A stretch of DNA of 50,514 nucleotides from IMG/VR virus record IMGVR_UViG_3300037088_000797, positions 128,001 to 178,514 of that record, one strand, 5' to 3'. A program made the translations under genes and the position numbers. Position 1 is the first letter of the stretch. Each line of letters opens with the position of its first letter. A model generated the notes under the pieces. The model saw only the letters and a list, made by a program, of their open reading frames with translations. It searched no databases and was not told the DNA's origin. This stretch comes from a virus (Duplodnaviria > Heunggongvirae > Uroviricota > Caudoviricetes). Below are positions 4,195-11,921 of this stretch, one piece after another.

Positions 4195-5289
4195 TTATAA
4201 GCTAAAACTTTTCTGTTTACGAGCCTTATTTCTAAGTTCGTTTACTTCCCTAAGTGCATTAGGGTTGAATCTTTCCCTTTTGATGATTGACACCAAGTGA
4301 TTAAATTCATTTTCAGTAAGAACCTGTCCGATGTAACCTTCAGCCTTAAGTAAGTAACTTTTTGGAGCACGTATTGTTGTAGACTGACCTTCTGTATCAA
4401 GAGTTGCATCAAAAGTGAGTTCAAGAACTTCTTGAATCCTGTCATATACATTTGCTGTCATTCTTTCTTTTGTCTTTTTCAAAGACTTTTCAAGCAAGTC
4501 AACAACACTTGTACGATTGCTTTTCTTAAGTTCTTCATATGTTTGAGAAAACTCATTCACTGCAGTCTTATGCTGTAATTCACTAATAATTGCAAGTGAA
4601 CCATAGCAGTCCCTGATCATCAAATCCCATACCTGTTCAGCGTATGTAAATGAAGGGAATTTGTCTATTGCAACAATTTCACCGTCAATCAACACAATGA
4701 TACCAATAAGATTCTTTGGACGTTCAAAGTGTGCAATGAACTGATCAAGTTTCTTGTCGTACTTGTCGAAGTATACGTTCAAATAGTTACCTGCACCAGA
4801 ATTGGTATCTCTACCTAATTTTTCAATTGCAGGATAAATCCTTGAATATCCGTTTGCCTTTCCAACTGAATCGAAAAGCATTTCACGCATACTTACTGGA
4901 ATCATACGAAACTCCTGTGTACCACGGAAGTATCCACCCTGACTACCCTGTACGCAACCTGCATCATGGTAAGTTACATTAGCCTTTGAAGGCACATAAC
5001 CAGCCTTGATCATACCGTGATTCTGAGCAACCTGCTTAGTAATAACAGCCATCTGAGTAGGAAGAATAACATCTTTCTTCTCATTGTTTGTAAAACTGAT
5101 CTGACCATACTGTGAGTTACTTGAGGTAAGTGAAGTCAATGGATTCGCAAAGCGATCATCCATAGAATTCTCCTTGTCAGTTGTCAAACATACGATTTGC
5201 ATGTTCATAATTGACTGTACCACGATGTTTCCATCCTTGTCTTTGACAGGACGGCAACCTTTTAACATTTCTGTAAGTTCTCTTTCCAT
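4195..5289 (-). CDS. ARPP-family (DUF6569/ARPP-1/2-like) protein
   Basis: 364 aa. Pattern N...K.V.LP....V..KQ..Q.H.......VP.......AGCV..SQGG and later IGIIVLIDGEIVAIDKFPS resemble ARPP domains. Starts 11 nt after the TROVE-like gene. Confidence 0.55.
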   Translation of the reverse strand: MERELTEMLKGCRPVKDKDGNIVVQSIMNMQIVCLTTDKENSMDDRFANPLTSLTSSNSQYGQISFTNNEKKDVILPTQMAVITKQVAQNHGMIKAGYVPSKANVTYHDAGCVQGSQGGYFRGTQEFRMIPVSMREMLFDSVGKANGYSRIYPAIEKLGRDTNSGAGNYLNVYFDKYDKKLDQFIAHFERPKNLIGIIVLIDGEIVAIDKFPSFTYAEQVWDLMIRDCYGSLAIISELQHKTAVNEFSQTYEELKKSNRTSVVDLLEKSLKKTKERMTANVYDRIQEVLELTFDATLDTEGQSTTIRAPKSYLLKAEGYIGQVLTENEFNHLVSIIKRERFNPNALREVNELRNKARKQKSFSL

Positions 5290-5300
5290 TGTATGATATA

Positions 5301-6962
5301 TTAAGCGTTAATAGTAATTTTTTTTGTTCTCTTAACAGGAGCAGCTTCAAGAGCATGAACCTGATTTTCAAGCCACCTTTTGGTGTCAATTTCAAGCAAT
5401 CTTGCATTGATCTGTGTCTGAATTGCAACAGGATTGTTAATCGCCATTGTAACCACTCCAGCACCTAATGCCCTTACATTGCCACCTATTTCAGCACCAG
5501 TGATTGGTGAAATCTGGAAGATAGGTGTTACACTACCAGATTCTGCTTTCCAGATTTGAATAACTTCGTTAGTCATACCATCGTAAGCATTTTCGTAACC
5601 ATCAGTTATGATGAAAATTGCATCATATGGTTTTGCAGGACGTTCTTCTTTTAAAAGTTCAATGAATGAACTTGCAAGATCACTTGCAAAACCTTTAGTA
5701 TCTACTCTATTAGATTCAGTTGCCGAAGCCATAAGAACCAATGAAGTAAAATCAGCAATTGCCCTTGGAGTATTCTTTGACTCTAATTTGTGACCAGTCA
5801 TCGACACACTGTCGTCAACTACAATACCAATATTCTGGTAGAAGAAGTTATTAATTTTCTTCTTTAAAGCAAGATTTACAATTGCAGACCTGATTTCGTC
5901 AGTGAAACTTGTTTCGTAACCAGTCTTGTAAAGTGCCATGAAGTCAGTTGCCTTTTCAAGTTCAACGTGTTTTTCAACGCCTAACTTTGCAGTTGATTTT
6001 GTCTGACGTACTTGCTGGTTTACAGAAGTAACAGCAACTGTTGATCTGATAAGTGCTTTTGTAGCTTCTTTCTGAAGATCAGTTGACCACATTGAATGAT
6101 ACTGTGGGTGCTTTACAGATGAAATTAAGCCAAGCAAAACTTCTTCTGGAACACTCTTAATACTTCTGATATCAACCTTTGCTTTCTGGTATTCAGCTAA
6201 AAGTGGAAATTCAGTTTCATTATAAGTAACACCGTCATCCTTTTTAAATAAAAACAATAACAATTTCAATGCTTTTAATGTTTCACCATTGAAATATCTT
6301 GTGATACATTCGTTGACAATCTTAGTTTCTTTTTCAGTTGCAACTAAGTTAGCACCTTCAAATGGTACGCCTCTCCAAAAATCAGCAGTAACTTGTTTCT
6401 GTGCAATTGAAATTAGAATAGAAGTTTTCTTCTGACCATATACGTGTTTCAAAATCTGTGCTATCTTGTTACGGTACTTCATAGCATAGAATTCAATGTT
6501 TGGCTGACCCCAAAGGAAACCAAGTATAATTTTTCTTGATCTTTCGTTATTGATTTTCTGATTCTTCATATCAACGAAAAGACGAAGAGCATATGGAAGA
6601 CCATTATCATTGACAAGGTTATTTAATGCACTAAGCACTGCCTTATCACTGATACCGTTATCATACCAGTCAATTGGGTTCACAATATTACATGCTCCGC
6701 CCTTTAATGTCTGCTTAAATTCATTAAGCAACACTTCTGAAACGAATTGACCAGTAGCACCCTTTTGAGCAGCTATGATCAATGGAAGTTCCTTTGAAAG
6801 TTTGTACAACTTGTCAATCTGACCATGTATAGCTTTCATCTGTTCGTCTCTTGAATGGTAGTAAGTTGCTGAACTTTTGCTACCTGAAGAGATAGTCAAG
6901 CCATCAATTAATGACTGCTTAACTGCTGGGAGTGTCTTCTGTGTTAATACTAAGTTTTCCAT
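5301..6962 (-). CDS. Divergent TROVE/Ro60-like protein with C-terminal VWA (MIDAS) domain
   Basis: 553 aa (Ro60-sized). N-terminal GSKSSATYY resembles the Ro60 GSEGGTYY motif, followed by a helical middle, then VWA motifs IVVDDSVSM (DxSxS) and IFIITDGYEN. Adjacent to tRNA-like ncRNAs. Confidence 0.65.
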   Translation of the reverse strand: MENLVLTQKTLPAVKQSLIDGLTISSGSKSSATYYHSRDEQMKAIHGQIDKLYKLSKELPLIIAAQKGATGQFVSEVLLNEFKQTLKGGACNIVNPIDWYDNGISDKAVLSALNNLVNDNGLPYALRLFVDMKNQKINNERSRKIILGFLWGQPNIEFYAMKYRNKIAQILKHVYGQKKTSILISIAQKQVTADFWRGVPFEGANLVATEKETKIVNECITRYFNGETLKALKLLLFLFKKDDGVTYNETEFPLLAEYQKAKVDIRSIKSVPEEVLLGLISSVKHPQYHSMWSTDLQKEATKALIRSTVAVTSVNQQVRQTKSTAKLGVEKHVELEKATDFMALYKTGYETSFTDEIRSAIVNLALKKKINNFFYQNIGIVVDDSVSMTGHKLESKNTPRAIADFTSLVLMASATESNRVDTKGFASDLASSFIELLKEERPAKPYDAIFIITDGYENAYDGMTNEVIQIWKAESGSVTPIFQISPITGAEIGGNVRALGAGVVTMAINNPVAIQTQINARLLEIDTKRWLENQVHALEAAPVKRTKKITINA

Positions 6963-6982
6963 ATTATAATTATTAATATATA

Positions 6983-7873
6983 TTAATTAAGTCTCTTCTG
7001 TTGTTTTTTTTCAATATCTATTTTAAATTCTCTCATTTGAGTCCGATAACCTTCGATTTCTGTTTGTGGCGTTTTACGATTTCCACATGCAAACATATGA
7101 TTAATAAATGCAACTAATGTTAATTCAACTCTATCCAAACGATCATTTTCAATTTTTTCTGATAAAAAAGTCCGATTATCATATTTTAACGGTACTGGAC
7201 TTACCGAATTGTTTCGATTGAACAATTGTAGTACTATTGGTAATCCTTTAGCATCTGTTACTTTTATTCGTTTTGCCGAATAATACTTAGGATTATATTG
7301 TTCAATTTGAAAAAATCCCTGATTAATCCATTTCTGGTATGGTTGATTGTTCGGTTTGAAATATCGGTATTCACGTAACTTCTGATTTATTTGATGACTA
7401 CTGATTTTTTTCTTTTCTTCATTTTTCTCATTCAATAATTTTGCAACTTCTGCAATTGTAAGTGTACCATTTGAAAGAACTAAAATTGGTTCGGCTGCTT
7501 TAAGTCTCAATTCTTTATATTCTTTTTCAACTTTAATAAAGTATTGCCTGATTTCTTTGCCCTTAACACTGTTTTGCACCATTGCAATTTCTTTCGCAGT
7601 ATCTAAGGTCAAAGCGTATTCAATTCGATACACACTGTTCGCAAACCCCCGTTCTTCCATGCCCCCTTTTTGTGGAGTTGGAATTTTCTTACTGTTTTTG
7701 TCGTAAAATAATAATGCAAAATCTTGGTTTTCGATAAATTCCCATTTTTCAATTTTATCTTTAATCCAAGTAGAAAAATCCTGACCAACCTCAAGAAATT
7801 TATATAAATCTCTTGCACTTACAACTGGATTTCCAGTTTTGGGACTTGCTGTAACTTTTATTAATTCTTCCAT
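6983..7873 (-). CDS. Phage antirepressor (AntA/AntB N-domain + KilAC/ANT-like C-domain)
   Basis: VSARDLYKFLEVGQDFSTWIK...EYALTLDTAKEIAM...GKEIRQYFI, then TIAEVAKLL...NQPYQKWINQGFF. Likely start is the ATG at 7871-7873, because the TTG at 7901-7903 lies inside a promoter -7 box. Confidence 0.85.
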   Translation of the reverse strand: MEELIKVTASPKTGNPVVSARDLYKFLEVGQDFSTWIKDKIEKWEFIENQDFALLFYDKNSKKIPTPQKGGMEERGFANSVYRIEYALTLDTAKEIAMVQNSVKGKEIRQYFIKVEKEYKELRLKAAEPILVLSNGTLTIAEVAKLLNEKNEEKKKISSHQINQKLREYRYFKPNNQPYQKWINQGFFQIEQYNPKYYSAKRIKVTDAKGLPIVLQLFNRNNSVSPVPLKYDNRTFLSEKIENDRLDRVELTLVAFINHMFACGNRKTPQTEIEGYRTQMREFKIDIEKKQQKRLN

Positions 7874-7900
7874 AATATTACTCTTAGATTTATTAGAGTT

Positions 7901-7930
7901 CAAATATACAAAACATTTTTATTAAAACAA
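7901..7930 (-). promoter_or_regulatory. Bacteroidota-type sigma70 promoter for the antirepressor (and possibly TROVE-ARPP) genes
   Basis: TTG-N19-TATATTTG on the minus strand. Confidence 0.6.
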
Positions 7931-7971
7931 TGATTATACGTATTAAAAATTAAAAAGTTACAAAAAAGAAC

Positions 7972-8020
7972 AAAAAAAATGGGTGAGTCAACACGTTTCC
8001 ATGTCAAGTCCCCACCCATT
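7972..8020 (-). terminator. Terminator closing the ncRNA operon
   Basis: AATGGGTG...CACCCATT stem followed by TTTTTTG on the minus strand. Confidence 0.65.
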
Positions 8021-8053
8021 GTCTTAAGAAAAACAAATCTTCTCTATTAAAGG

Positions 8054-8147
8054 AGAAGAAGTTTAGTTGTAATTTGGTAAGTTTGTCCCGCCTCTCAACG
8101 GACGGGATTACATGTTTCAATCTACTGTATTCACAACAAGTTCTTCT
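8054..8147 (-). ncRNA. Y-RNA-like unit A
   Basis: Closing stems AGAAGAA/TTCTTCT and GTTGT/ACAAC, motif AATACAGTAG, internal GC hairpin TCCCGTC/GGCGGGA. Confidence 0.55.
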
Positions 8148-8239
8148 TTAAATCTTTATTTTTGAAAAAACTCAGCACTTCTGCTGATAAAAACCATTCT
8201 TAACCTTGCACGTTGCAACATGCGTCAAATGTTAGGTTC

Positions 8240-8280
8240 AAGTGGGTTGGACTCAAATTATTGTATCCGTAACTCCACTT
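8240..8280 (-). ncRNA. Possible minimal Y-RNA-like unit A' (41 nt)
   Basis: AAGTGG-AGTTAC-GGA TACAATAA TTTGAG TCC-AAC-CCACTT: a bulged stem with a degenerate TACA(G>A)TAA motif. Confidence 0.35.
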
Positions 8281-8289
8281 TAAAACTTG

Positions 8290-8427
8290 GGGAATATTTT
8301 AAAGATATTTGTTGAATTTGTTTTGAAAGTTTAACCGACTTTTGACTTAACCGCTTGTCTAATCTCGCCATTGGCGAAATGATGGATTCGAACCACCGAA
8401 ATTGCTGTAAACATCTTTCGTTTTCCC
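8290..8427 (-). ncRNA. YrlA-like unit B containing a circularly permuted tRNA cloverleaf
   Basis: Closing stems GGGAA/TTCCC and AAAGATGTTT/AAATATCTTT, then TTACAGCAA. Cargo in order: T-arm GGTGG-TTCGAAT-CCATC, loop-closed acceptor ATTTCGCC-AAT-GGCGAGAT, D-arm TA-GAC-AAGCGGTTAA-GTC, anticodon-like arm AAAGT-CGGTTAA-ACTTT. Confidence 0.75.
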
Positions 8428-8433
8428 TTTGTA

Positions 8434-8446
8434 TTTTTAAAGAACG
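8434..8446 (-). promoter_or_regulatory. boxA-like antitermination element
   Basis: CGTTCTTTAAAAA, identical to the copy at 9547-9559. Confidence 0.55.
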
Positions 8447-8501
8447 TTACCCTGAAGTTTGTGTCGCCACAGGGACGACAGGGAATTAGTTTTATAAGTT
8501 T

Positions 8502-8581
8502 TGAAGAAATTCGTTGGTCTTGTTTTAGTTTTACTCTGATTTCAAGTCAAATTGTTTACTGTAAAAACCATCAGTTCTTCA
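8502..8581 (-). ncRNA. Y-RNA-like unit C carrying an anticodon stem-loop (TGA, Ser-like)
   Basis: TGAAGAA/TTCTTCA, internal loop CTGA/ACGAAT, TGGT/ACCA, TTACAGTAA. Cargo TTTGA-CTTGAAA-TCAGA. Confidence 0.6.
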
Positions 8582-8662
8582 TTATTTCTCGAAATCTATT
8601 GGCGCAGTCTTCTTGTGACTTACTTTCAACGGTGTGTGTGCCGTGACCTTTAAATTTCATTG

Positions 8663-8734
8663 TAGCGGGAGATAGATTTGAACTACCGACCTTAACGTTA
8701 TGAGCGTCACGAGCTACCACTGCTCTATCCCGCA
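8663..8734 (-). tRNA. tRNA-Met(CAT), initiator (fMet)-type body with a non-canonical anticodon stem
   Basis: TGCGGGA TA GAGC AGTGGTA GCTC G TGACG CTCATAA CGTTA AGGTC GGTAG TTCAAAT CTATC TCCCGCT A. U1:U72 mismatch and A11:U24 are initiator hallmarks. No complete encoded CCA. Confidence 0.9.
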
Positions 8735-9156
8735 ATATACCTTTCCAATAAATCCCATGCTTCTCTATACACATGTGACTTTGGTTTTCTTTGTCTGGAT
8801 ACTTCTTCGTGTAATGTTATTGCACCTTCGTATGAATTAAAAATATCAACTGGCATAACATAAAACACATTTAAATCTGAAATAAAAATTACCGCAAAGT
8901 CAAAATCTTCGTTAGTGTATTTTTCTCGTTTCATTATACGTCTATTTGTTTTAGTACGTCTAACATCAACCAGATACACTCCCATTGTTTTCTCCCATGC
9001 TGATTTAACTTGTATCTTAACAAATTTTCCGTTAAGAACTATGACTAAATCATATGGTAATCTATCACCTACGGGAATCAAAACATCCCATCCTAATTTC
9101 AGTGCTTTTAACTGCACTTCTATTTCGGCAATATCTCCTTTCATTTTTGTATCCAT
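8725..9156 (-). CDS. Free-standing PD-(D/E)XK homing endonuclease, I-Ssp6803I-like (PDDEXK_5)
   Basis: MDTKMKGDIAE...GW.VL.P.GDRLPYDLV...K.QVKS.W...RRTKTNRR...DFDFAV...FYV.PVD.F.SY...RQRKP.S..YREAW matches I-Ssp6803I along its length as I recall it. The last 10 nt, including the stop codon, overlap the 5' end of the tRNA-Met. Confidence 0.9.
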   Translation of the reverse strand: MDTKMKGDIAEIEVQLKALKLGWDVLIPVGDRLPYDLVIVLNGKFVKIQVKSAWEKTMGVYLVDVRRTKTNRRIMKREKYTNEDFDFAVIFISDLNVFYVMPVDIFNSYEGAITLHEEVSRQRKPKSHVYREAWDLLERYIAG

Positions 9157-9169
9157 AAATCAAAGAACA
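9157..9169 (-). promoter_or_regulatory. boxA-like element directly before the endonuclease start codon
   Basis: TGTTCTTTGATTT-ATG. Confidence 0.4.
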
Positions 9170-9180
9170 TTTTATAAATT

Positions 9181-9306
9181 AAAAGGATAATTCGTTTGTT
9201 ATTTTTGTTTACAATGATGGGGTTTCGACACCCCGACCTTCTGCTTTGAATGCGGACGCTCTACACTGAGCTAATTATTTACTGTAATAACACACAGTTT
9301 CCTTTT
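9181..9306 (-). ncRNA. Y-RNA-like unit D with embedded D/anticodon(TCA)/T arms in normal order
   Basis: AAAAGGA/TCCTTTT, CTG/CGAAT loop, TGTTATT/AATAACA, TTACAGTAA. Cargo TAGCTCAGTGTAGAGC-G-TCCGC-ATTCAAA-GCAGA-AGGTC-GGGGT-GTCGAA-ACCCC. Confidence 0.7.
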
Positions 9307-9310
9307 TTTG

Positions 9311-9398
9311 TGGGGAAGGGTGATTTCGAGTCACCATACAACTGTTTTACTGACAATTTGCTGTAACCATTTTTTCTGTAAACACAATCAGTTCTCCA
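9311..9398 (-). ncRNA. Y-RNA-like unit E with a tRNA 3' half (anticodon GTA, T-arm, acceptor-like 3' end)
   Basis: TGGAGAA-CTG-ATTGTG-TTTACAG..., second TTACAGCAA, then ATTGT-CAGTAAA-ACAGT, TGTAT, GGTGA-CTCGAAA-TCACC, CTTCCCCA. Confidence 0.6.
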
Positions 9399-9546
9399 GT
9401 AAGGAGTATTACGATAGTATTTTTGAATTTTTATTTTCGCATACTTCCCCGTTTTAATATTCAATTTAAGTTTAATAGAAACCATCCGTTTGGAATGTCC
9501 AAGAAAAGTCATGCATAATAACGGCTACTTCATTTCTATTTAAAAC

Positions 9547-9607
9547 TTTTTAAAGAACGTTTGTCCTAAGACGATGCAAACATAATACGCATTTTTTTAA
9601 TATGCAA
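9547..9607 (-). promoter_or_regulatory. Bacteroidota-type promoter plus boxA at the head of the ncRNA operon
   Basis: TTG(9607-9605)-N20-TATGTTTG(9584-9577), then CGTTCTTTAAAAA at 9559-9547. Confidence 0.7.
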
Positions 9608-9713
9608 GTGTTTTCCAATTTATTTTTAAAAAAAATTTATATTTGTTTCAGTCGTAGTCGGATAAATAAATACGCAGTATGTTTAAAAAAGTTTCAAAAA
9701 TTATAAAATATTT

Positions 9714-11921
9714 TTATTTTTTTACTATGTCTGGTTGATGAAGTTCATGATTTCGTAATCTCTTAAATACGTCCACTTGATCAACTGGTGGGGCATCTGG
9801 GTCAATAAGTAATTCTGTCTTTTCAATCTCTTCTCTTCGTTCTTTTGTTAAAATTTCTACTGGAAGTTTGTGTTCTGGTGGCAAATATACTCTATTATTT
9901 TTATTAATTTCGTCATATTTTTGCACAACTGTTTCCACAATTATTTCTTTTGGTGGCGAGATATCTTCCAATTTTACTTCAGTTTCATTAACATTTGTTG
10001 TAAAAGTTTCTCCACTCCAGTCCAATAAACTATCATTTTTTATCTGTTTTTCATGAAAATCAGCTTCAGGATGAATATTTACACCCTCATTTACTCCCTC
10101 ACTTGCTCCCTCATTTACTCCCTCAATCTTTACAGTTTCATCAATTTCCAGTATATCATCTTTCTTTGTAGTCTCAATTGCAGTATTTTTTACACCATCA
10201 TTTACACCCTCAGTTACACCATCATTTACACCCTCAGTTTCATTCAATGTCTTTTGTGCAAAATCTACAATCTGTTTTAATTCTTCACTGTTTAACTCAC
10301 GAGTTGTACTAATATGTATATTTTCAATTGTTGTATTTTCAGTTTTAACTAATTTATCAAATTGTGTTAAATCAACAGGGTCATCCAATTTTATATGATC
10401 ATTAATGTCTGGAGCGTTCAATCTACCCATAAGACTTCCTTCACTATGCTTACTAATTATGGCATGCATTTCCAGATCAGATGATTTTTTCAATATTTCA
10501 TTTACAGTGTCATTAACTTTATTAACGTCATCTTCAGTTTGTTTTCTTAATGTTGTCTTTAAAGGATATCTCTTATCTTCAATATTAATTTGCATTGTAT
10601 CATTATTAAAGATACAATCAGTGAATGTTTGTCCATCTTGTGCAAACCTTGCTTTAATAATACGTATACTTGCAAGATTAGCTTCTTTTTGATCTGCAGT
10701 TTTAGCGACACTCATAAAGAAATGTGCTTTTTGCACCCTCTTAATGCTACCACCAGTCTGATATGCTTCCACGTATTCTGCATTAAAACCACTGCGATTA
10801 GTTTGTATTGCAGTCCAAGCAGGTATATCAAAATCTGCAGCCAGTGCTTCAAATGATTTTATAATTACAAGTTCTGCTTCGTTTCTATCAGGAGATTTTT
10901 TATGTGATTCAAGACAGTCAAGATAGTCAAGAACTAATATGTCAAATTTAATACCAAATTTCTTCTGGTAGCCAATCATCCACCTACGAATATCCATCAT
11001 AGTAGTATTTTCCTGACTAAATCTTTTTATAATAAGGTTACCTTTGCCAGACATATCAACTGCTTTCTCATGCGCAATCCTGTTAACTCTTATATTTTCA
11101 AATTCATCATCCAGTTTACTTAATGATGATTTTGCCCAGATAGTAAAGTGTTTACGTTGAATCTGTTCTTTAGTATCTTCGAATATAATCTGACAAACAT
11201 TCTTCTGATCGTCATATGCACTGTTAGCAATTACTGTAAGCATTGTTGTTTTTCCAACACCTGAAGGAGTTAATATTACACCAATTTCTTGTTTACCCAA
11301 ACCACCACCAGTTAAAGTATCAATAGCAAATATGCCTGTTGGAATCGTCTGACGAAACTCTTTTCTTAATGCATGTTCAATGTTATCAAATACGCTTATG
11401 CCATAATCTTCATCGTCACCAATATGTTGAACTTTATTGAATTTTTCTTCTATTAAAGCAATTGTTGTTTTCTTTCTGATATCACCATTCTTGGTTGAAG
11501 TTATTATGAATTCACCAGTTTTTCTATATTCTTGTTGCTTAATAAAATTAGTTGTTTCCCTTCTTACTACATCACCCTCATACAATATTTGTTTATTTAT
11601 AACCCTTTCATTCCATAGTTCAATCTTCTTAATTACCGCAAATAAAGATTCTTCCTCAATAATATTATTGGGAGTTTTATAAGTATTAATCGCTTGCTGT
11701 ATACTTTGATTTTGAAGATTTGGGACTTTTTCGTGTGCTTTGAAATATTCAAGAATTATAATAAAAAGTCTTTTAAGATATGGGTCATCAAAATATTCAA
11801 TAGCTAAGTTTGGAATTGTTTTTTCTGCAAACTCTGGTTCGACCAGTAATTGCCACATAAGACGTTGTTGAAATTCAGGACCTAAATAAGCACTTAGGGT
11901 ATGTTCGGTATTTTCAGCCAT
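9714..11921 (-). CDS. dnaB: Replicative DnaB/T4 gp41-like helicase with long acidic C-terminal tail
   Basis: IPTGI..ID...GGG, Walker A TPSGVGKT, Walker B LVLDYLD, WTAIQTNR, IIKARF. Confidence 0.9.
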   Translation of the reverse strand: MAENTEHTLSAYLGPEFQQRLMWQLLVEPEFAEKTIPNLAIEYFDDPYLKRLFIIILEYFKAHEKVPNLQNQSIQQAINTYKTPNNIIEEESLFAVIKKIELWNERVINKQILYEGDVVRRETTNFIKQQEYRKTGEFIITSTKNGDIRKKTTIALIEEKFNKVQHIGDDEDYGISVFDNIEHALRKEFRQTIPTGIFAIDTLTGGGLGKQEIGVILTPSGVGKTTMLTVIANSAYDDQKNVCQIIFEDTKEQIQRKHFTIWAKSSLSKLDDEFENIRVNRIAHEKAVDMSGKGNLIIKRFSQENTTMMDIRRWMIGYQKKFGIKFDILVLDYLDCLESHKKSPDRNEAELVIIKSFEALAADFDIPAWTAIQTNRSGFNAEYVEAYQTGGSIKRVQKAHFFMSVAKTADQKEANLASIRIIKARFAQDGQTFTDCIFNNDTMQINIEDKRYPLKTTLRKQTEDDVNKVNDTVNEILKKSSDLEMHAIISKHSEGSLMGRLNAPDINDHIKLDDPVDLTQFDKLVKTENTTIENIHISTTRELNSEELKQIVDFAQKTLNETEGVNDGVTEGVNDGVKNTAIETTKKDDILEIDETVKIEGVNEGASEGVNEGVNIHPEADFHEKQIKNDSLLDWSGETFTTNVNETEVKLEDISPPKEIIVETVVQKYDEINKNNRVYLPPEHKLPVEILTKERREEIEKTELLIDPDAPPVDQVDVFKRLRNHELHQPDIVKK
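10078..10235. repeat. 12-bp tandem repeats encoding EGVN/DGVN units in the helicase tail
   Basis: (T/G)TTAC(A/T)CC(A/C)TCA units in two blocks: EGVNDGVTEGVNDGV and EGVNEGASEGVNEGVN. Confidence 0.75.

Follow-up and report, generated by a model that had tools for sequence, protein, structure and literature searches.

To our knowledge, I-Ssp6803I of Synechocystis PCC 6803 represents the only well-studied family of bacterial PD-(D/E)XK homing nucleases (PF11645), tetrameric enzymes that cleave the DNA encoding the anticodon arm of tRNA-fMet. Its gene resides within a group I intron of tRNA-fMet, and both the sequence of its site, which coincides with the anticodon arm, and the catalytic role of its residue E11 have been reported, the structure deposited as PDB 2OST carrying the inactivating substitution E11Q (PMC2175346). 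Intronless homing, on the other hand, is documented for the seg and mob genes (PMC2988022), and the closest precedent for the locus described here is SegB of T4/T6, a free-standing nuclease encoded among phage tRNA genes that cuts the tRNA DNA of relatives, with co-conversion (PMC2330249, PMC13096335).

The present locus lies in a 50,514-nucleotide stretch of DNA (the window) belonging to a 178.5-kb, 54%-complete virus record whose complete relatives measure 327–365 kb. The reading that we prefer, to which we assign a probability of roughly 0.6, is that it harbors a homing endonuclease gene of I-Ssp6803I type, free-standing and propagated through intronless homing within a family of ~330–365 kb phages, probably infecting Bacteroidota.

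The nuclease gene (8725..9156, minus strand) is intact and encodes 143 amino acids, its assignment to the I-Ssp6803I-type PD-(D/E)XK endonucleases being based on the open reading frame and on its matches to PF11645 and 2OST. Indeed, the protein scores 143 bits against the PDDEXK_5 family profile (E 7e-42, cut-off 26) and its residues 2–137 align with 2OST (E 1e-43), with ~54% identity by manual count on the printed alignment. D8, E11, D36, Q49 and K51 are all retained; D8, D36, Q49 and K51 are taken to be catalytic from the motif. Furthermore, the hairpin motif RRTKTNRR is nearly invariant across the phage and intron enzymes. Unlike the gene of I-Ssp6803I, that of the window is not contained in an intron: the tRNA downstream is uninterrupted and no group I intron signal was returned by Rfam, either at the gathering threshold or at E<=5. 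Immediately before the ATG of the nuclease there is a boxA-like decamer (9160..9169, minus strand), which usually moves with the nuclease cassette, a GTTCTTT-type motif preceding 14 of 15 nuclease genes vs 3 of 36 nuclease-free tRNAs. At the other end, the last 10 nt of the ORF coincide with tRNA positions 1–10, the TAG stop being nucleotides 8–10 of the tRNA. Thus, what the sequence-only reading had claimed of the layout, namely an intronless I-Ssp6803I homolog placed between a boxA-like element and a tRNA whose 5′ end overlaps its stop codon, is borne out by these matches and coordinates. In ~24 of 31 proteins of the clade the reading frame ends within the tRNA, in some cases as far in as the anticodon loop; since 5′ processing of the tRNA would leave a stop-less mRNA, it may damp nuclease expression and act as a possible brake. 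In RNA runs, only 5–7% of the sequence words were present.

The adjacent gene (8662..8734, minus strand), identified by tRNA prediction and pairing, specifies an intronless tRNA-Met(CAU) without encoded CCA. Its acceptor and D arms are of the fMet type (U1:U72, A11:U24, A73), displaying both the 1:72 mismatch and the purine11:pyrimidine24 pair that distinguish bacterial initiators. The three G:C pairs at 29–31:39–41 are instead replaced by A:U, C:G and G:C, so that only G31:C39 is left; G30:C40 is lost, position 30 being C, and initiation in E. coli cannot do without G30 (PMC5389676). The earlier description of this molecule as initiator-type therefore holds for the 1:72 and 11:24 positions but not for two of the three G:C pairs. 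The anticodon arm (tRNA positions 27–43; 8693..8709, minus strand), corresponding in position to the I-Ssp6803I site, has the stem TGACG/CGTTA and differs from that site (sequence as in PMC2175346) at 6 of 17 nt, yet its stem is still paired, 28:42 being a G:U wobble. To this extent the alteration of the stem with respect to the I-Ssp6803I site is confirmed; the stem TCGGG/CCCGA, regarded as canonical in the sequence-only reading, is that of I-Ssp6803I but differs from the Bacteroidales fMet stem. The GG-loop-CC core present in all five intron-defined targets seen is broken in the window allele which, for this reason, is probably resistant to its own nuclease.

A search for homologs yielded 33 clusters with 74–96% identity, followed by a gap to <=67%. 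All 15 distinct close-homolog alleles with a readable tRNA have the nuclease free-standing directly before an intronless tRNA-Met, and a DnaB gene is found upstream of the nucleases of this clade wherever the contig extends far enough. Four homologs with 50–60% identity, bacterial or metagenomic, are located within group I introns in tRNA-fMet. A 57% homolog is also free-standing before tRNA-Met in an unrelated phage (L071:3001-3575), so that this layout probably arose more than once; the anticodon arm of L071 retains T28:A42 and has C39 changed to T. Another relative, lacking the window nuclease, has a distant PF11645 gene (22% identity; L286:1480-1942, G404) that overlaps the 5′ end of tRNA-Lys(CTT) in a tRNA cluster, i.e., the same layout with another tRNA. 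No close cultured relative of the phage was found, and a literature search of limited coverage returned no paper on a free-standing member of the family beside an intact tRNA-fMet.

Several lines of evidence argue for the mobility of the gene. On a DnaB tree, its distribution requires 10 changes for 13 carriers (shuffled mean 11.4), and the distances between nucleases and between DnaB proteins are uncorrelated (Mantel r 0.12, p 0.17). The intact copies are under purifying selection (median dN/dS 0.17), while others are decayed, with an in-frame stop in L009/L074, a frameshift in L010, an internal deletion in L072 and the substitution D36N in P0031. In the peat runs X2 and X4, a strain differing from the window at a single base over 309 bp downstream joins position 8692 to 9177, thereby skipping the nuclease gene; in this near-identical strain ~79 other bases replace 8693–9176, and its sequence departs from that of the window at tRNA position 43, exactly where the anticodon stem ends on its 3′ side. 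Summed over the full and empty forms, contig depth in X2 (6.1 and 7.7) matches that of the shared side (13.4), which is only a hint because contig depth is not copy number. In another run the joint connects 8735 to 9173, giving the same tRNA without the gene. The near-identical empty strain of X2 and X4 was not found in IMG/VR. A boundary is visible also in L156, whose nuclease cassette is identical to that of the window over its first 321 nt (321/321), the identity falling to 94% up to tRNA position 48 and to 87% beyond the tRNA. From the X2/X4 joint and L156, the mobile or co-converted unit would comprise a ~20-nt leader, the nuclease gene and tRNA positions 1–43 (8693..9176, minus strand). 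A break in the anticodon arm repaired from a carrier would leave the boundaries seen at tRNA position 43 and in L156. As with other free-standing homing endonucleases, the gene is thus optional, with a fixed site and empty alleles in relatives. Horizontal spread with co-conversion of the 5′ half of the tRNA and its anticodon arm is supported indirectly by these sequence comparisons, and the suggestion of intronless homing made by the first reading gains from the patchy tree, the incongruence with DnaB, purifying selection, decay and the near-identical empty strain.

The same patchiness could be attributed to repeated loss of a stranded relic, strictly dependent on TCGGG/CCCGA and deprived long ago of its site in this family. 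This would fit the lack of that stem in all 45 family alleles, the several decayed copies and the near-invariance of RRTKTNRR; the uncorrelated nuclease and DnaB distances, the dN/dS of 0.17 and the segregation of both forms in near-identical strains oppose it, and we consider it very improbable.

If homing is the preferred explanation for the gene, what is the origin of the altered stem? Relatives were retrieved by way of the conserved vWA and ARPP genes next to the locus, irrespective of whether they had the nuclease. In all, 45 family alleles, 15 nuclease-bearing and 30 nuclease-free, were compared. The closest relative (L013/L014; vWA 89%, most blocks of the locus 85–99% identical in nucleotides) shares the anticodon arm of the window but lacks the nuclease, and no PF11645 match occurs in its 100% complete genome. 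TGACG/CGTYA is the stem of at least eight more alleles devoid of the nuclease; a search with the stem pattern supplied five of these. The stem TCGGG/CCCGA is found in none of the 45 alleles (0/45), the mean distance from it being 4.3 in carriers vs 4.6 in non-carriers (p 0.74), and five stem types are common to the two groups. Neither the window-type stem (p 0.20) nor the loss of G30-G31 (p 0.09) is significantly enriched in carriers; the GG core is retained in 8 of the 15 nuclease-bearing alleles and all three G:C pairs in four of them. The claim that the target had been rewritten on account of the nuclease must accordingly be abandoned, since relatives without the gene carry the same stem, an outcome that the first reading had itself named as refuting it, and the variation is family-wide; they had been expected to display the canonical stem, which none of them has. 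Causation of the stem by the nuclease is likewise ruled out by the TGACG-type stems of nuclease-free relatives. Its borrowing from a bacterium was also rejected, the exact 23-nt arm occurring once in 185,579 GTDB genomes, in a phage contig; this 362,763-bp contig (L076), filed in GTDB within a Candidatus Paceibacterota MAG, is the jumbo phage L014, with the same locus sequence. A third candidate, the splitting of an older tRNA by nuclease plus spare tRNA, was discarded because no half-tRNA remnants exist and the upstream unit is present also in empty alleles.

The diversity of the stem is probably driven otherwise, e.g., by escape from host anticodon nucleases. Indeed, a tRNA-like unit located upstream (9211..9280, minus strand), common to nuclease-free relatives and having a loop with TCA, is equally variable, which would point to a driver acting on RNA, such as anticodon nucleases: it has no nuclease to itself and its 7-nt loop takes 19 sequences among relatives, which would favor a decoy subject to diversifying selection over an opal suppressor. 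An RNA-level driver of this kind is the basis of a further explanation, whereby a relaxed, SegB-like nuclease cleaves a wide range of alleles, that of its own genome among them, and persists as a passenger promoting recombination, with amplification or reshuffling of the ncRNA array as a possible consequence; the stem variation would be due entirely to host anticodon nucleases. Retention of the GG core by more than half of the carriers agrees with it, as do the 19 loop variants of the neighboring unit, the different stems of nuclease-free sisters at a DnaB distance of 0.03 (n=2), the ability of SegB to cut also T4 and T6 DNA and to drive tRNA amplification (PMC2330249, PMC13096335) and the proposal that nuclease-resistant phage tRNAs evade VapC-type enzymes (PMC10264068). 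It leaves unexplained, however, the boundary located exactly at the anticodon stem and the absence of one class of alleles from carriers, to which we shall return; in addition, no tandem amplification is seen in the loci fetched. We regard this explanation as rather unlikely.

The class in question is T28:A42, found in 0 of 15 carriers vs 17 of 30 non-carriers (Fisher 1.7e-4, family-wise permutation p 0.002), a post hoc signal that emerged from a position-by-position comparison of carriers and non-carriers coming largely from different databases. The phage alleles with T28:A42 include stems of the CTTGG, TTTGG and TTGGG types, those of carriers with C28 the CCGGG, TCAGG and TCTGG types. The independent pairs number 3:0 (p 0.25), too few for a test; three further carriers, inferred from C-termini reading into the tRNA, likewise do not have T28, an outcome with a chance probability of ~8%. 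A loose DNA pattern search for additional carriers produced chance matches and one known locus. Because homing brings in the arm of the donor, a class missing from carriers is a candidate for the susceptible one; cleavable alleles would thus most likely be the host-like T28:A42 alleles, a post hoc deduction from sequence. Indeed, this pair, which may mark the true target, is also that of Bacteroides and Parabacteroides: among the bacterial fMet stems (read from L157, L161, L165-L167), those of Bacteroides finegoldii, Phocaeicola massiliensis and Parabacteroides distasonis are TTGGG/CCCAA, with T28:A42, and that of Prevotella is CCAGG/CCTGG, with C28 and A29:U41. The change of residue 66 from N to V was considered as a switch for T28 and rejected, intron enzymes with V having C28 or A28 targets; no residue change accounting for the T28 preference was found. 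Nor is it evident that all carriers are self-immune: the intact enzyme of L075 is found next to a 23-bp site that matches exactly the target deduced from the exons for L011, an intron-encoded homolog.

The resemblance to Bacteroidales stems bears on the boldest suggestion of the first reading, that of a weapon and replacement pair in which the enzyme would be retained as a means of cutting host tRNA-fMet genes, with a resistant initiator provided by the phage. The three Bacteroidales stems do belong to the class never seen beside the enzyme, the host signals are Bacteroidota-like, the gene is under purifying selection and wild-type I-SspI is poorly expressed in E. coli (PMC2175346). Nevertheless, of the 31 distinct alleles retrieved by means of the flanking genes a single one carries the enzyme, and several copies are broken; the closest relative has the same tRNA with no enzyme; the Prevotella stem is not of the T28 class; and cutting a tRNA gene would not quickly deplete a stable, ready-made tRNA. 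The C30 of the window tRNA, where E. coli needs G30 (PMC5389676), renders it a doubtful replacement. Rare carriage, decaying copies and C30 make a selected weapon quite unlikely, and this part of the first reading is weak; incidental cutting of host genes is plausible in view of the link between T28 and Bacteroidales stems.

The conserved upstream flank of the locus is a DnaB-like helicase gene (9714..11921, minus strand), used as lineage marker, which in some relatives carries LAGLIDADG intein-type inserts (L004:574-3519, L073:1-2683); the conserved downstream flank consists of a TROVE/vWA-like gene and an ARPP-1 gene (4195..6962, minus strand). Upstream of the latter two, an ncRNA array (7930-9610, minus strand) built of tRNA-like and Y-RNA-like modules, in which the motif TTACAG recurs, is kept across the family; between close relatives its units come and go and change order. 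A low-threshold ARAGORN scan returned only noise. An AntA/KilAC antirepressor-like gene (6983-7903, minus strand) between the array and the vWA gene is missing in many relatives, and NUMOD4/HNH and DUF723 genes are variably present around the locus. As to the host, TAnnTTTG is enriched intergenically in the phage and SD motifs are at background level, and these promoters together with the absence of SD motifs suggest Bacteroidota.

Returning to intronless homing, the following course of events can be proposed. During a mixed infection the enzyme would cut the DNA of the anticodon arm in the tRNA-Met gene of a sibling phage; the break would be repaired from the donor by the phage's own UvsX/gp32-like recombination functions, RecA-like and gp32-like genes lying <=8 kb from the locus with an exonuclease gene adjacent too, and the nuclease would be copied together with tRNA positions 1–43. 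Survival of the donor would be due to its own stem allele, one of many that existed beforehand and cannot be cleaved. A more far-reaching version, which we hold to be rather unlikely, is that a phage lineage of such nucleases abandoned its intron and recognizes the Bacteroidales-type T28:A42 arm, replaces host-like sibling alleles by resistant ones and breaks host fMet genes too; if true, it would amount to a gene drive for tRNAs evading anticodon nucleases in sibling jumbo phages.

Whatever the outcome of this last proposal, the I-Ssp6803I family is here seen to live intron-free, with natural full and empty alleles segregating in one peat community; ~20 stem variants occurring in nature, with and without the nuclease alongside, constitute a substrate panel for the question of how self-cleavage is avoided, and this locus links homing to the question of what has altered the anticodon arms of phage tRNAs. 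Since the principle is already known from SegB, the advance is a moderate one unless host cutting or a drive for defence-evading tRNAs is demonstrated.

In comparison with I-Ssp6803I, the window nuclease shares family, about half of its residues, the catalytic ones included, and the link to the anticodon arm of tRNA-fMet, but its gene is phage-borne, intronless and upstream of an intact tRNA whose 5′ end it overlaps; protection through intron insertion is impossible. In nuclease-resistant phage tRNAs (PMC10264068), and in connection with the cleavage of tRNA-fMet by VapC (PMC8522696), the anticodon arm is likewise changed with respect to the host; those are cases of escape at the RNA level, whereas the present one concerns a selfish element superimposed at the DNA level on the same arm. 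Finally, SegB is a GIY-YIG enzyme that reads a T-loop motif of many tRNAs, cuts its own genome and acts hundreds of bases away from its gene, whereas the window encodes a PD-(D/E)XK enzyme that seems to be directed at one tRNA species and whose expected site lies ~25 bp from the gene.
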